A stretch of DNA of 64,000 nt, taken from the NCBI GenBank assembly GCA_963675245.1, contig OY775910.1, positions 1,344,001 through 1,408,000 on the forward strand, in the 5' to 3' direction. Position 1 is the stretch's first letter, and each line of letters opens with the position of its first letter. The notes below the pieces were generated by a model, which searched no databases, was not told the DNA's origin, and saw only the letters and a program-made list of their open reading frames with translations. The translations under genes and the position numbers were made by a program. Below are positions 10,208-14,543 of this stretch, piece by piece. The DNA is from Acholeplasmataceae bacterium. Its GTDB lineage: Bacteria > Bacillota_I > Bacilli_A > Acholeplasmatales > Acholeplasmataceae.

Positions 10208-11443
10208 ATGGATATGAATAAAAGAGAAATTGTAGATGGTATATATAGTTTTTCAATGAACATTGACAACATTATATTTGAAAATATGTGGGAACTACCT
10301 CATGGTGTATCGATGAATTCATACATTGTTAAAGGTAATGATGTGGCTATTATTGATGGTGTCATAGGTTGGGATGGTGTGCCTGAAACACTTTACAAAA
10401 ATTTAAAAGATTTTGATATTGAACTTGAAGACATTAAATATCTTGTTGTTAACCACGTTGAGATGGATCACACTGGATGGTTGACTAACTTCAAAAAAAT
10501 GAGTAAAGATTTTACCGTTGTCGCAACCAAAAAAGGAGAAGACATAATCAAATCATTTTATGGCGATGACATGAACATCTTAGTGGTCAAAGATGGAGAC
10601 ACATTAGATCTTGGTCATGGTAAGATATTAGCATTTTATGAAATTCCAAATGTACATTGGCCTGAGACGATGATGACTTATGAAATCAGTTCAAAAGCAT
10701 TATTTCCATGTGATTTATATGGTATTTTTGGGACAGTTAAAGGTCATCTTTATGATGATGAATTAACGGATGATGAAAAGAAGATATATGCTGAAGAAGG
10801 CTTAAGGTATTATACCAATGTTATGATGACCTATACACCAAGAGTTAAAAAGGCGATTGAAAAAACAAGGGCATTAGATATTAAGTTAATTCTTCCTGGT
10901 CATGGTATCTTGTATCGTGGTAATCCAGATCAAATCGTAGATGATTATGAACGATGGGGTGCTTATACAAATGGCCAAGGTGAGAATGAAGTCACGATTA
11001 TTTGGGGGTCAATGTATGGATCAACTGAAAAAATGGTCAATTATACGAAAGGACTACTAGAAAAAGAAGGCATTAAAGTAAAGATGGTCCAAATGCCTTA
11101 TGACACACAAAGTAATGTTTTAACAAAATCACTTAGTTCTGCAGCGATAATAATCGCTGCACCTACCTATGAATATAAAATGTTTCCACCTGTAGCTCAT
11201 GCACTTGATGAACTTGGTAGAAAAAGAATGATTGGAAAGAAGACGCTTTATTTTGGATCAGCTGGATGGATTGGTGGTGCAAAAAAGGATTTTGAATCTA
11301 TTCTTGAGACATCACGTATGAAATGGGATATTGTGGATGCTTTAGAGTTTATTGGTACAGCGGATGAAGATGCTTATCAAATGATCAATCATGCAGTTAA
11401 GAAATTAATTGAATCAATGAAGGAAAATATTTATCAAAGATAA
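10208..11443 (+). CDS. fprA: Flavodiiron protein (FprA/A-type flavoprotein)
   Basis: Metallo-beta-lactamase motifs NHVEMDH, HWPE, PGHG plus flavodoxin SMYGST; start uncertain (10181/10208/10214). Confidence 0.9.
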   Translation: MDMNKREIVDGIYSFSMNIDNIIFENMWELPHGVSMNSYIVKGNDVAIIDGVIGWDGVPETLYKNLKDFDIELEDIKYLVVNHVEMDHTGWLTNFKKMSKDFTVVATKKGEDIIKSFYGDDMNILVVKDGDTLDLGHGKILAFYEIPNVHWPETMMTYEISSKALFPCDLYGIFGTVKGHLYDDELTDDEKKIYAEEGLRYYTNVMMTYTPRVKKAIEKTRALDIKLILPGHGILYRGNPDQIVDDYERWGAYTNGQGENEVTIIWGSMYGSTEKMVNYTKGLLEKEGIKVKMVQMPYDTQSNVLTKSLSSAAIIIAAPTYEYKMFPPVAHALDELGRKRMIGKKTLYFGSAGWIGGAKKDFESILETSRMKWDIVDALEFIGTADEDAYQMINHAVKKLIESMKENIYQR

Positions 11444-11769
11444 TCTATTATTTATTTTTGCAACAACTATTAGAGATGTTAGTCAATAGCTAGCATCTTT
11501 TTTGATAAATAAAGAATTATTAACATTATTCATGCATAAGTGTGTGATTTATTGGGATTTAAAGCAAATTGATAAACGTACAATAGTTGTAGTAGTAAGA
11601 TAAAGACAAAGAAAGAAATTACTAACTTTTATCAATGAGGTGACTAACTATTAAAAGTCAAGTACTTTTAGTAGATAAACTGTAAAAACCTCCAATAGCC
11701 ATAATTTTTAGAGGTTAGCCATATAACTGGATGATTTTATGACTTAACCGCCACAGTTTAAGTAATCAA

Positions 11770-12930
11770 TTATTGTAGTTTAGAGGAATCAAAATCTTCC
11801 TGATGTGTTTCGAGATGATGAATGACTCTAATGAGTTTTTTTGAAAGATGAACCAGTGCGACACGATGATGTTTACCCTCTTGTTTCTTCTTGGTGTAGT
11901 AGTCGTAGAAGACGGGGTTATAGATCATAACCATCATTGAGATATTGATGAGTGTTGCTCTTAGGTACTTGCTGCCACGTTTAACCAGTTTACCTGTTGA
12001 AGACATGGTGCCAGACTGTCTGATGGTTGAATCCAGACCTGCATAGGATAACATTTCAGCGGGATTGGAGAAAAGTGAAATATCACCATATTCTGAAACG
12101 ATGACAGCTGCTGAAATGATTCCGATACCTTTAATGGTTTGAATCTTAGTTGGATATCGATGCATTAAAGAAATGATCTGTTTCTCAGTTTCTTCGATAT
12201 CTTGATTGAGTTTCTCAACATAAGAAATTGAAGTCTTAAGTTTGAATAGTTGATGATCTTGTGTCACACCAATGGTTGATTTTGCGAGTTCCTTCAGTTT
12301 AACAAACTTCGGATAATTGAATTTACCCATCGATCGTTTACGAAGCTTATCGAAGTGGTCATCAGTCATCCTTGCTATTTTATCCGGTGATGAAAAGCGC
12401 TTCAAGATGTATAAAGATGTATCACTATAGCCTTGTTCTTGCATAAAAGGTTTGAATTCAGGAAAGATGACATCTAAGACCTTGGTCATCATATTGTAGT
12501 GTTTCGTCCGAATTGAGATGAGTTTAAAACGTAACCTGGTCAGTGATTTTAAAGCACTTATATGATAAGATTGATGATGATAGGCTTTGTAGTCTACAGA
12601 TCTCATATAAGTTGAAATCATTTGTGCATCTTTCTTATCCGTCTTTGTTTTTCTCAGTGAATGGGCTTCTCCAAACTTCTTCACGAGAAAAGGATTAATC
12701 TCCATGAATGAATATCCATGGAGGATAAGAAATGACTTAAGGTTTTCTCCATAATGACCTGTGGCCTCTAAGCCTATTATCATTTCTTGCTTGACTAAAG
12801 AGTTAAAGTATCCTAATAGTTCTTTAAACCCAGACTGACTGTTCTCAAATGAGAACTGATGGCTAACTGTTTCGGTGGCGATGAAACAGTCATGCTTGTA
12901 CTTTGAAATATCGATGCCGATATAGATCAT
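11770..12930 (-). CDS. IS110 family transposase/recombinase (DEDD)
   Basis: IGIDISK, GLEATGHY, KTDKKDA, IKGIG and YAGLD..RQSG motifs. Confidence 0.97.
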   Translation of the reverse strand: MIYIGIDISKYKHDCFIATETVSHQFSFENSQSGFKELLGYFNSLVKQEMIIGLEATGHYGENLKSFLILHGYSFMEINPFLVKKFGEAHSLRKTKTDKKDAQMISTYMRSVDYKAYHHQSYHISALKSLTRLRFKLISIRTKHYNMMTKVLDVIFPEFKPFMQEQGYSDTSLYILKRFSSPDKIARMTDDHFDKLRKRSMGKFNYPKFVKLKELAKSTIGVTQDHQLFKLKTSISYVEKLNQDIEETEKQIISLMHRYPTKIQTIKGIGIISAAVIVSEYGDISLFSNPAEMLSYAGLDSTIRQSGTMSSTGKLVKRGSKYLRATLINISMMVMIYNPVFYDYYTKKKQEGKHHRVALVHLSKKLIRVIHHLETHQEDFDSSKLQ

Positions 12931-12974
12931 AAGTACACCTCCAAGAATTAAATTTGTACGTGTGGTAAGTCCAG

Positions 12975-13110
12975 CAGCGTCTTTATCTCATAATCATGTA
13001 AAAAGCGTCTTCCGCTAACTAACTATTGCTGATTAAAATAAAGACCGTGGTAAGCGTCACCTCAAAATAGTCTAGGTTATAAAAATATGACACAGATCCA
13101 CAGTACATTA
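12975..13110 (-). ncRNA. Predicted IS110 bridge RNA (core region; true ends unknown)
   Basis: Two stem-internal-loop domains whose loops match the element/target junctions in LTG-RTG-LDG-RDG order. Confidence 0.75.
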
Positions 13111-13195
13111 TTAGTATATTAAATTAGAACGAAAGGAGTAAAGATTTAAAGACTTAAGTAACTAACTTAATACACTTTAAATCTTACATGACTGT

Positions 13196-13525
13196 ATGAA
13201 AAATAAAATCATCATATTATTACTCCTGGTTTCATTTTTTGTTGGTGCTGTTCAATTATTATCTAATCGATCAGTTTCGACTGATGCAAACTCAGGTGCT
13301 ACACAACACGCTATTTCATCAAACATTGATGGCACGACAAGTCCAACAATCATTAATGAAGGTGCATTTTTTGATGGTCTTGCAGGTGTAACGATGATAT
13401 CTGAACTAGATGCCTTAAGTGGTGCATCAACATCTAGAGATGAATATGACGACGATGATGATGAACATGAAGATGAGTATGAACATGAAGATGAACACGA
13501 AGATGAATCGGAGTATGATGACTAA
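13196..13525 (+). CDS. Small exported protein with repeated DxxSGAT-like (flavinylation-type) motifs and His/acidic tail
   Basis: N-terminal hydrophobic segment; DANSGAT, DGTTSPT, DGLAGVT, DALSGAS; EHEDEY repeats; RBS displaced by IS110. Confidence 0.7.
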   Translation: MKNKIIILLLLVSFFVGAVQLLSNRSVSTDANSGATQHAISSNIDGTTSPTIINEGAFFDGLAGVTMISELDALSGASTSRDEYDDDDDEHEDEYEHEDEHEDESEYDD

Positions 13526-14148
13526 TGTTGACTATTTTATTAACAGCATTATTATTTGCAGTTTCCGGATATTTTTTCAGTAAGCAAATTAGAGTAAGTG
13601 CAATCTTTTGGTATATAGTTGCTAGCCTTATAGCGATATTTGTAGATCCTCATTCTGCAAATATATTTAGTCTTGGTTACGTCGCATTTGGTATTTTATT
13701 GTTAGTGATGTTTATGGGTGTATTTGATAAAGGAAAATTTAGAAATCAATTATTAGGAGTTAGAGGAGAATATGCCATCATTGGCACGATTTTATTGTTT
13801 CCACATGCGTGGGGTTATTTTGAATTTTATGGACTTGAAAACAATTTTTTTCAAAACAATCTATCCTTCTATATAGGTATAATTGCTTTAATCACTATGT
13901 TACCTTTAACATTAACCTCATTTAGAATTGTAAAAAGTAAAATGAAATATAAGAAATGGAAGAAATTACATCAACTATCTTATTTATTTTACGCACTGAT
14001 TGCTACACATATAATCTTACTTGACAATCAAAGATTTTGGCTTTATGTCATGATATTTGGAGTTTATACGATTATGAAGGTGATTATGCTACTTCAACCG
14101 AATAAAGCTAAACAACAGCAAAAACACAAAGCTATCCAACACAATTAA
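13525..14148 (+). CDS. Ferric reductase-like (MsrQ-type) transmembrane protein
   Basis: About 6 TMs; LTS...WKKLHQLSY..H heme-ligand pattern. Confidence 0.8.
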   Translation: MLTILLTALLFAVSGYFFSKQIRVSAIFWYIVASLIAIFVDPHSANIFSLGYVAFGILLLVMFMGVFDKGKFRNQLLGVRGEYAIIGTILLFPHAWGYFEFYGLENNFFQNNLSFYIGIIALITMLPLTLTSFRIVKSKMKYKKWKKLHQLSYLFYALIATHIILLDNQRFWLYVMIFGVYTIMKVIMLLQPNKAKQQQKHKAIQHN

Positions 14149-14165
14149 ATTTTAAAGAAAGGTGA

Positions 14166-14543
14166 ATGTACATGAGTGTTTTTACAACATTTTTAGAAAA
14201 AATAAATTCATTAGAACATCGTTATAAATTAGCGAATATATTGGATTGGATTCAGACCAACTATCCACAATTAGTACCTATGATTAAATGGAATCAACCT
14301 ATGTTTACTGATCATGATACATTTATTATAGGTTTTAGTGTTGCGAAACAACATATCGCCATCACCATTGAAAAATATGGCATGGATAAATTTAGATTAG
14401 AAATTGAAAATGCAGGATACGAACAAACCATGATGCTTTTTAAAATCAAGTGGGAGCAAACCGTTAATTATGGTCTATTGGAACGCATGATTGCATTTAA
14501 AATCAATGATAAATTAAATGATACTCATTTTTGGAAAAAGTGA
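14166..14543 (+). CDS. DUF1801/YdhG-like protein
   Basis: IKWNQPMFTDHDTFIIGFSVAKQHI motif. Confidence 0.8.
   Translation: MYMSVFTTFLEKINSLEHRYKLANILDWIQTNYPQLVPMIKWNQPMFTDHDTFIIGFSVAKQHIAITIEKYGMDKFRLEIENAGYEQTMMLFKIKWEQTVNYGLLERMIAFKINDKLNDTHFWKK

Follow-up and report, generated by a model that had tools for sequence, protein, structure and literature searches.

Insertion between the Shine-Dalgarno (SD) sequence and the start codon of a host gene is already known for IS900 (CATG-N6-TCTCCTT), and an explanation at the level of guides is given here. IS900 also carries hed, an antisense ORF that runs across the element and borrows the ribosome-binding site (RBS) and start codon of the host. 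The natural target of IS621 is a REP-type repeat, and IS492 of Pseudoalteromonas atlantica, a member of the IS110 family, causes phase variation by precise excision. In genes 25 and 38 of phage T4, a distant SD is brought to working distance by a stem-loop. According to PMC2942039 (2010, citing Doran 1997 and Inglis 2003), the SD and the start codon lie on opposite sides of inserted IS900 and IS901. The target motif of IS900 is given as CATGNNNNNNTCTCCTT in the part of PMC8141618 devoted to the element, where terminal inverted repeats and target duplication are described as absent. For IS621, the rules set out in the pertinent sections of Durrant et al. 2024 (PMC11208160) are that the 5' guide reads in the same sense as the left half-site, that the 3' guide is the complement of the right one, and that the 2-nt core takes part in all four pairings. 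A literature search found no paper naming both bridge RNA and IS900.

The window (the whole stretch of DNA analysed, 64,000 nucleotides) contains an IS110-family element at 11643..13190 on the minus strand, 1548 bp in length including one copy of the 2-nt core, with the left end at the high and the right end at the low coordinate. Its transposase (386 aa; 11770..12930, minus strand) was assigned DEDD and Tnp domains from Pfam, NCBIfam and relatives in the PDB. Residues 4-157 match PF01548 (3e-36), residues 262-345 match PF02371 (5e-22), and the protein scores 230 bits against NF033542, 'IS110 family RNA-guided transposase', for which the cut-off is 140. The PDB relatives are the transposases of ISCro4 and IS621 (phmmer E-values 1e-16 and 2e-15); protein identity to them is low, and IGID, EAT, KTDxxDA and SG are kept in the alignment to ISCro4. 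The domain order is that of the IS110 group, with the DEDD (RuvC-like) domain at the N-terminus and the Tnp domain with the serine motif at the C-terminus. Also in keeping with this group, terminal inverted repeats are absent, and CA alone is common to both junctions in the four copies of the element. These copies are near-identical, with two or fewer differing internal positions, and reside in a genome of 1.63 Mb and 34% GC that is Acholeplasmataceae-like. The repeat contig over 11637-13190 has a depth of approximately 4-6 times that of the flanks. In a second public sample the contigs are without the flanks of the window's copy, and in the contigs of four public runs, which drop rare forms, no circle junction, joint or empty site was seen. 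The observed anatomy, the four junctions, the covariation of guides with flanks and the empty sites in sister genomes indicate that this is very probably an active or recently active IS110 element, the insertion site of which is chosen by a bridge RNA encoded in its non-coding left end.

In the window, the host SD GAGGTG (11637..11642, plus strand) stays on the right-end side, the TG at 11641-11642 being one copy of the core. The right-end terminus begins at 11643 (ACTAACTATT...) and the left-end terminus stops at 13188 (...CTTACA). Then follow, at 13189..13198 on the plus strand, the second core copy TG (13189-13190), the spacer ACTGT (13191-13195) and the ATG of the target gene at 13196. The insertion puts 1548 bp between host SD and ATG, and ORF 13196 is left without any SD in the 20 nt next to its ATG. 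Removal of 11643-13190 gives ATCAAT-GAGGTG-ACTGT-ATGAAA, which is exactly the empty allele that the sequence-only reading had predicted by deletion. The junction is identical in all four genome copies (GAGG-TG, the element, and N5-ATG of an intact gene), which on the other strand reads CAT-N5-CA, the element and CA-CCTC, each before an intact ORF. The adjoining genes encode a 109-aa secreted-like protein, lipoamide dehydrogenase, a GDSL esterase and GlnRS. CAT at N5 together with an open frame is found at 41 of the 321 genomic CACCTC sites, the four occupied sites included; for targeting by the right guide alone, the chance of finding 4/4 copies at N5 would be approximately 0.128^4 = 3e-4. The abundance of targets claimed for the element is borne out by 33 free CAT-N5-CACCTC sites in the host.

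At the glnS copy, the empty site was checked in the closest sister genome, which has tgaggtgTTATTATGGAAAATCAATC, the allele predicted by deletion with one core copy retained. At the lipoamide dehydrogenase site, none of the 9 sister genomes carries an element; 6/9 have GAGGTG-N6-ATG and 3/9 have AAGGTGG or GAGGG variants, and the predicted spacer of the genome's own site is N5. An empty ortholog of the window's copy was not obtained, since none of the 9 sister genomes matches the 5' part of ORF 13196 at the DNA level. In target logic and geometry, with start-codon complement, spacer and SD complement in succession, the element equals IS900/IS901 of Mycobacterium avium, and the orientation of IS900 relative to its target gene is also the same as in this element. 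However, IS900 and IS901 belong to high-GC Actinobacteria, whereas the host here is Acholeplasmataceae-like with 34% GC, and the core and SD variant differ from those of IS900 (CA CCTC here). In contrast to IS900 with its hed, the longest antisense ORF within the present element has 51 aa and is internal (12543-12698, plus strand; ORF minimum 50 aa); a hed-like antisense gene was ruled out, this being the only plus-strand ORF listed.

The bridge RNA was located at 12975..13113 (minus strand) by a match to the covariance model R1, with the target-binding loop first and the donor-binding loop second. Model R1 places the RNA upstream of the transposase gene in 65/66 loci (transposases at 47-52% identity) and detects it in 32/151 genomes of the same family. 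The fold comprises five helices with 26 pairs, with 97.3% of cells paired and 3 compensatory pairs in an alignment of 13 sequences. Variable columns occur only in the two guides, and the RNA is otherwise 90% identical. An Rfam scan of 11000-14000 (E up to 1) gave only a chance snoRNA match, and no family matches the bridge RNA. Directly upstream lies a promoter-like site, TTTACT-18-TATACT (13113..13142, minus strand), which is a consensus match only, the region having 10 promoter-like sites against 8.5 +/- 2.7 expected.

All guides are read on the minus strand. The left target guide GUGUCAUAUUUUUA (13080..13093) has the form NN-CAU-N5-UA, with variable columns around an invariant CAU, which is the start-codon complement and is retained in 13/13 close relatives; UA faces the core. 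The right target guide UUUUGAGGUGAC (13056..13067) sets UGAGGUG against CACCTCA, i.e., the core and the SD complement. Both had been recognized in the sequence-only reading: its right guide UGAGGUGAC (13064..13056) sits in the conserved target loop, and its left guide UCAUAUUUU (13091..13083), which it had called the weakest assignment, falls within GUGUCAUAUUUUUA at the correct place in that loop. The left donor guide AAUAGUUAGUUA (13016..13027) is identical to the right-end terminus AATAGTTAGT followed by the core, except that the first core base is U and not C, and agrees with the right end at 10/10 positions in the close clade. The right donor guide UUUACAUG (12995..13002) is the reverse complement of the core and the start of the left end (CATGTAA), with 7/8 positions matched. 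The donor loop is matched in this way to the element's own right and left ends, AAUAGUUAGUUA to AATAGTTAGTCA and UUUACAUG to CATGTAA.

The likeness to IS621 and ISCro4 extends from the protein family to the place of the RNA, which is encoded in the left end before the transposase gene, to its order of loops, the target loop preceding the donor loop, to the senses of the guides and to the inclusion of the core in all four pairings. The core is CT in IS621 and CA here (CT in sister clades). In further differences from IS621, the reach of the right guide is 6-7 nt, the left guide is apparently longer, with 10-12 nt, and accepts one extra base in the spacer, and in both left guides U faces the first core base (U opposite the bottom-strand G). 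The natural target also differs, being a translation-initiation region and not a REP-type repeat. Base pairing and strand-exchange chemistry are inferred by analogy with IS621. The donor loop would recognize the two ends of the element itself. The 3' guide of the target loop, UGAGGUG, has the sequence of an SD and would therefore pair with the SD-complementary strand, including the 2-nt core CA, and the 5' guide, NN-CAU-N5-UA, would cover the start-codon complement and the spacer. The element would thus recombine into GAGG-TG-N5(6)-ATG; the host SD stays at the right-end side and the ATG at the left-end side, and after insertion the transposase gene is always directed away from the target gene. 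This design recurs throughout a broad clade, the hosts of which are Acholeplasmataceae-like bacteria and others of low GC.

A survey set of 88 non-redundant insertions was compiled, with L060, L106, L057 and L095 removed by hand. A start codon with an open frame abuts 75 of the 88 (85%). As controls from this genome, CACCTC sites give 32.8% and positions taken at random 7.4%. The start codons in these 75 are CAT in 73 and CAC in 2, all 0-12 nt from the core, and the spacer is N5 in 28 insertions and N6 in 26. At 13/88 sites no start codon with an open frame was found; at least two of these (L082, L130) are mis-set left ends. The right guide matches the right flank at 4.85/7 non-core positions (shuffled 3.53 +/- 0.10; 0/2000 shuffles reach the observed value), the match by position from the core being 0.99, 1.0, 0.99, 0.97, 0.91 and 0.77, then 0.45 or less. 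Across elements, SD-like guides include GAGGUG, GGGGUG, GGAGUUG, GGGAGUG, AAGGUG, GGAGAUG, GGAGGAG and others, and the flank varies in step. The left guide covaries with the left flank when both are anchored at CAT (192 vs 158 +/- 7; 0/2000 shuffles reach the observed value), and anchoring at the core gives a weak signal (81 vs 69.8 +/- 5.4; 45/2000 shuffles). Positions +3 to +6 after CAT covary (0.61, 0.57, 0.50 and 0.50 vs shuffled 0.35, 0.46, 0.41 and 0.37). Identity between guide and flank amounts to 11/11 through CAT in L151, and to 10/10 (TTTTCATTTT) at two sites of the type B element of genome G005 that have unlike outer flanks. In the element's own copies, 2-3 of 5 spacer bases match the left guide, the middle of which fits the targets poorly. 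Many targets have an N6 spacer, one base more than the N5 of the guide, and a plain continuous duplex from core to CAT can therefore not hold everywhere.

These data bear on a narrower explanation, that nothing but the SD is recognized: selection of the site would fall to the right guide by itself, the ATG would be a by-product, and the CAU or CUAU would belong to the RNA scaffold. The far stronger match of the right guide fits this explanation, as do the range of distances to CAT, N4 to N12, and the guide of a distant clade, which has CUAU in place of the CAU of the close clade and cannot pair with CAT in register. Nor are the best left-guide matches the occupied sites; when the 41 CAT-N5-CACCTC sites are ranked by guide match, those occupied rank 6, 13, 22 and 30, without enrichment. 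However, reading of the SD alone leaves unaccounted for the start codon and open frame at 85% of insertions against 33% of CACCTC sites, the position of the own copies (4/4 at N5 against 12.8% of CACCTC sites), the left-guide covariation at +3 to +6 after CAT, and the long identity runs of L151 (11/11) and G005 type B (10/10), and it is considered unlikely. The proposal that the element is aimed at SD-spacer-ATG as a whole is upheld by the 4/4 own junctions, the 75/88 insertions and the guide-flank covariation.

The genes downstream of the window's copy form a target operon at 13196..14543 (plus strand). Its first product is the 109-aa protein of ORF 13196, hydrophobic at the N-terminus and acidic in the tail; then come a membrane protein resembling ferric reductases (13525-14148, plus strand) and a DUF1801 protein (14166-14543, plus strand). 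It had been suggested that the element acts here as a reversible off-switch, parting the gene from promoter and SD and silencing it, with precise excision restoring expression of 13196-14543 in the manner of phase variation. IS492 would be the model for such a switch. The insertion of 1548 bp between host SD and ATG, with no SD within 20 nt, agrees with the suggestion. SD use in this genome is high, an SD-like tetramer being present before 660/1027 long ORFs and in 6.8% of random windows. A normal site is regained when the element is deleted together with one copy of the core. Precise excision of IS492, of the IS110 family, is cited in the reference list of PMC11208160. However, the switch found no support, as one copy lies before the sole glnS above the family cut-off, and gatB is absent in this genome and in 10/10 genomes of the genus. 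Moreover, a different element variant occupies the same glnS site in another species, and relatives precede ThrRS-like, GAPDH, Ddl and Era-like genes, the frames of which are all intact. According to the excision results of the CazIS110-1 preprint, excision rejoins the donor, the target is not regenerated and the original copy is kept. The element has no terminator-like site, so read-through transcription is possible, which also counts against an off-switch. Such a switch is therefore regarded as improbable, and silencing of the target gene is, we think, incomplete at most. Even less credible, in spite of the generally lesser harm of intergenic than of intragenic insertions (stated in the passage of PMC2942039 on this subject), is survivorship, in which insertions would be widespread and only those in the SD-ATG gap would persist: the element's own guides are complementary to the junctions, which vary together with them, the orientation is constant, the gap, with its 5-6 nt, is much too short to be hit by chance, and separating a gene from its SD is not obviously harmless.

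The last ~60 nt of the left end read, on the strand of the target gene, GAAAGGAG, a hairpin, AUG, the N5 spacer and the AUG of the gene; GAAAGGAG (13131-13138) lies at the foot of the hairpin (13138-13187), the whole occupying 13131..13187 on the plus strand. The hairpin folds with -14.3 kcal/mol (z = -2.9), and its helix covaries in 16 relatives. The GGAG-hairpin motif is present in 53/61 left-end types vs 2.5% of control windows. With the hairpin bridged at its foot, ~8 nt separate the SD-like motif from the start codon; for distant clades this effective distance comes to 12-19 nt. The motif is degenerate in exactly one clade, the one in which the cut falls within the SD and AGGAG stays with the gene. 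This conserved GGAG and hairpin may replace the displaced SD. The arrangement of GGAG, hairpin, 8 nt and AUG resembles that of T4 genes 25 and 38. We suggest, tentatively, that the element could supply a structure-dependent substitute RBS and so re-wire the start of the host gene. When applied to the left end, RNAalifold favors an invariant 13-bp helix that crosses the GGAG hairpin; G-U pairs occur in this helix solely on the transposase strand, so that both structures may sit on different transcripts. A substitute RBS, if real, would explain the persistence of these elements before essential genes, i.e., those for the sole GlnRS (2 hits in the genus), the ThrRS-like protein, GAPDH, Ddl and the Era-like protein. 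The elements would then be parasites of translation-initiation sites that bring their own RBS, a new way for a mobile element to occupy the front of an essential gene without death of the host. An outward promoter in the left end was unsupported, the consensus scan giving no plus-strand site near 13100-13190, where only weak hexamers are seen by eye. A mini-ORF from the ATG of the terminal CATG was also rejected as a feature of general use; its UGA overlaps the ATG of the gene in copies 1 and 3, and copies 2 and 4 lack this overlap.

Targeting by a bridge RNA, one target-loop arm of which is an SD look-alike and the other of which covers the start codon, provides an account at the level of guides of why some IS110-family elements land between RBS and start codon. 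Since the 3' end of the 16S rRNA determines the SD, this sequence occurs hundreds of times in almost any bacterium. An element that reads it would find targets in a new host after transfer, landing always outside the coding sequence and in fixed orientation. The 88 natural guide-target pairs indicate that ~6-7 nt of the right guide matter and that, for the left guide, neither mismatches in the middle nor a change of one base in spacing are prohibitive; they constitute natural variation for bridge recombinases. The right end contains TTGACT (11656..11661, minus strand; read from the sequence), a putative half of a junction promoter. Joining of the ends in a circularised element would give TTGACT-N17-TAAGAT, with TAAGAT from the left end, as a candidate junction promoter. 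For a reading frame starting from the orphaned host SD, the right end provides just an ATT codon and 11 codons.

The single-contig genome (1,626,300 bp, 33.9% G+C) contains four near-identical 1.55-kb copies of the IS110-family element, one of them at window 11643-13190; the copies differ from one another at no more than two internal positions. The transposase (386 aa, minus strand, 11770-12930) matches Pfam PF01548 and PF02371 and scores 230 bits against NCBIfam NF033542, 'IS110 family RNA-guided transposase' (cut-off 140); its relatives in the PDB are the transposases of ISCro4 and IS621. Written in the reading direction of the transposase gene, the left flanks and spacers of copies 1 to 4 are ...TTTTTCAT ACAGT, ...GTTGCCAT ATAAT, ...ACTTTCAT ATAGT and ...TTTTCCAT AATAA, and the right flanks are CCTCATT, CCTCAAT, CCTCTGT and CCTCAAA, respectively. 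All copies begin after the left flank with CA and TGTAAGATT..., and terminate before the right flank with ...AATAGTTAGT and CA. Nothing but this dinucleotide, the core, is shared by the two junctions in all four copies, so that the strand of the flanking gene reads GAGG-TG, element, a 5-nt spacer (N5) and ATG. Each ATG starts an intact frame, and the genes encode a 109-aa protein (ORF 13196), a 456-aa lipoamide dehydrogenase (standing after an E2 gene), a 214-aa GDSL-family esterase and GlnRS. The placement between a Shine-Dalgarno (SD) site and the ATG is thereby confirmed. The stop codon of ORF 13196 and the ATG of a ferric-reductase-like gene overlap (ATGA, 13522-13525), and the two genes (13196-14148) are probably translationally coupled.

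The empty allele reconstructed in the sequence-only reading, ATCAAT-GAGGTG-ACTGT-ATGAAA, is exact, and empty sites, by which that reading was to be checked, are found in sister genomes of the genus. Eight of nine are element-free at glnS, reading ...TGAGGTG-N5-ATGGAAAA, and in the closest of these, whose gene is 83% identical, the spacer is TTATT, exactly that left beside the own copy. The junction of the E2 and lipoamide dehydrogenase genes is element-free in all nine, with GAGGTG-N6-ATG in six and AAGGTGG or GAGGG variants in three. In the ninth genome (G051, locus L174, 2074-2218) exactly this SD-ATG gap of glnS is occupied: the contig breaks off within a related left end that has a different left guide. 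The glnS gene has therefore been hit a second time, in another species of the genus.

The 260 nt from the left end to the transposase gene are 90% identical among 13 close relatives, with the variable columns confined to two short blocks on the minus strand, GU-GU-CAU-AUUUU-UA (window 13093..13080) and UUU-UGAGGUG-AC (13067..13056). These are the 5' and 3' sides of one internal loop of a putative bridge RNA, closed by ACUGUGG/CCACGGU and a small inner hairpin showing compensatory changes. A second loop bears AAUAGUUAGUUA, the right-end terminus plus core, and UUUACAUG, the reverse complement of core plus left-end start. The alignment supports 26 pairs (97.3% paired), three of which changed on both sides, and the two-loop layout is that described for the IS621 bridge RNA in PMC11208160. 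No Rfam family matches this RNA. A covariance model of its 139 nt finds the RNA in the same upstream position relative to the transposase gene at 65 of 66 further loci, whose transposases are mostly 47-52% identical to that of the window, and the RNA is found in 32 of 151 sampled genomes of the same family (12 of 20 genera). At the single unmatched locus (L020, 1200-1500) host DNA resembling a tRNA gene stands in place of the left end and bridge RNA.

From 145 matches to the RNA model, L060, L106 and L057 (unusable left ends) and L095 (a duplicate of an own copy) were left out by hand, element ends were set by patterns that had been compared with the donor guides, and duplicates were removed, giving a set of 88 non-redundant insertions for which both flanks are available (core CA in 47, CT in 41). 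By position from the core, the right guide matches the flank in 0.99, 1.0, 0.99, 0.97, 0.91, 0.77, 0.45, 0.40 and 0.36 of sites. The mean agreement over the seven positions outside the core is 4.85, against 3.53 ± 0.10 when guides are permuted within core class (0 of 2000 shuffles as high). Guide and flank change together: GAGGUG with CACCTC, GGGGUG with CACCCC, GGGAGUG with CACTCCC, GGAGUUG with CAACTCC, AAGGUG with CACCTT, GGAGAUG with CATCTCC, GGAAGUG with CACTTCC, CUAGGUG with CACCTA and GGAGGAG with CTCCTC. An SD-like tetramer lies inside 39 of the 42 distinct right guides. The left junctions of L007/L092, L061 and L069 are CT and the right junctions CA, as expected from a mismatched core after strand exchange. 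In L057 (1-216) a tandem duplication of the sequence upstream of the RNA suggests a tandem or nested element.

On the other side, 75 of the 88 insertions have a start-codon complement (CAT 73, CAC 2) at 0-12 nt from the core and a frame open over 50 codons or up to the end of the available flank; the spacer is N5 in 28, N6 in 26, N7 in six, N8 in five, N4 in two and scattered in the others. The 13 misses include two with mis-set element ends, and in five the CAT is there with a short frame behind it. CAU is invariant in the left guides of the 13 close relatives; of 50 distinct left guides 27 have CAU, and 20 others have CUAU or CUAC in this position. With CAT as the anchor for guide and flank, the neighbouring variable positions agree better than in shuffled pairs (192, against 158 ± 7; 0 of 2000 as high), most strongly in the four bases on the core side; with the core as anchor there is a weak effect (45 of 2000 as high). 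Most elements have a guide spacer of N5, and targets have N5 or N6. On these data the start codon is read, though through no simple unbroken duplex. The proposal that the target loop encodes an SD-spacer-ATG pattern is thus supported by the collected insertion sites of homologues, and holds in a large clade. In genome G005 three copies of a single element type (L140-L142; two counted as separate sites) share TTTTCATTTT, which matches the left guide at 10 of 10 positions, with four variable bases between it and the core; guide and target agree here distally but not in spacing.

Insertion between SD and ATG is already known from mycobacterial relatives; the guide-level explanation is new. The IS900 target motif is given as CATGNNNNNNTCTCCTT, and the antisense ORF hed of IS900 is described as having no RBS or start of its own (PMC8141618); entry of some insertion sequences between SD and start codon is noted in PMC2942039 (2010), citing Doran 1997 and Inglis 2003. 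The two 2024 bridge and seek RNA papers, supplements aside, mention neither IS900 nor ribosome-binding sites or start codons as targets. Literature searches found nothing naming both 'bridge RNA' and 'IS900', and nothing on this point for IS110 and bridge RNA combined with SD.

An SD-like tetramer precedes 660 of 1027 long ORFs of the genome by crude start calls, against 6.8% of random windows, and loss of the SD should therefore matter to the gene. The left end may supply a substitute RBS for the displaced host SD, which we regard as possible and rather doubtful; among the readings left open it departs furthest from what is known. On the gene strand GAAAGGAG (13131-13138) is followed by a predicted hairpin (13138-13187; -14.3 kcal/mol, z = -2.9), AUG, the N5 spacer and the AUG of the gene. 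The hairpin is 93.7% paired with three compensatory pairs among 16 close left-end types. Its 5' foot carries an SD-like tetramer in 53 of the 61 left-end types that are distinct; among other windows taken from these sequences the count is 70 of 2833. Five of the eight types lacking this motif belong to the clade with guide GAAAGG, which cuts inside the SD so that AGGAG stays with the gene. In the close clade the motif and the ATG are effectively 8-10 nt apart, in several others 12-19 nt. The bases of the GGAG motif, read on the transposase strand as CUCCUUUC, could instead mask the RBS of the transposase, and RNAalifold favours an invariant helix that crosses the covarying terminal hairpin. 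This helix has 13 bp (UGUAUUAAGUUAG with CUAAUUUAAUAUA, window 13113-13176, minus), with G-U pairs on the transposase strand only, and the transcripts of the two strands may therefore fold differently.

Several observations speak against a plain off-switch, as far as expression can be judged from sequence alone. A single glnS of the genome scores above the family cut-off; all ten genomes of the genus (this one and nine sisters) have glnS and gatB was found in none, so Gln-tRNA should depend on GlnRS. Pfam matches were obtained for 33 of the 45 target genes long enough to scan, including a class Ic aminoacyl-tRNA synthetase, a ThrRS-like protein, GAPDH, D-Ala-D-Ala ligase, an Era-like GTPase, WhiA, BacA, sigma-70-family factors, chorismate synthase and a second lipoamide dehydrogenase. 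For the lipoamide dehydrogenase targeted in this genome a paralogue exists. A scan of the element gave no terminator-like sites, and read-through from a host promoter is therefore possible. The suggested reversible switch for 13196-14543 finds no support in these observations. For CazIS110-1 a 2025 preprint describes copy-out behaviour with the target not regenerated.

Were CACCTC alone read, the chance of all four copies lying at N5 would be about 3e-4. Apart from element ends the genome has 317 CACCTC sites; at 104 of these (32.8%) a start-codon complement lies 0-12 nt away and an open frame follows, with N5 spacing at 37, and 1482 of 20000 random positions (7.4%) pass the same test. CACCTC, the right half-site, is also present in both 16S rRNA 3' ends (G000:C1:768165 and 1071080), where the left half has no CAT and no element is found. 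The transposase initiation region, GGAGGTG-TACTT-ATG (window 12928-12947, minus; the same in all four copies), fits the target consensus, and the element copies themselves account for four of the 37 'free' CAT-N5-CACCTC sites; self-insertion in opposite orientation would therefore be possible.
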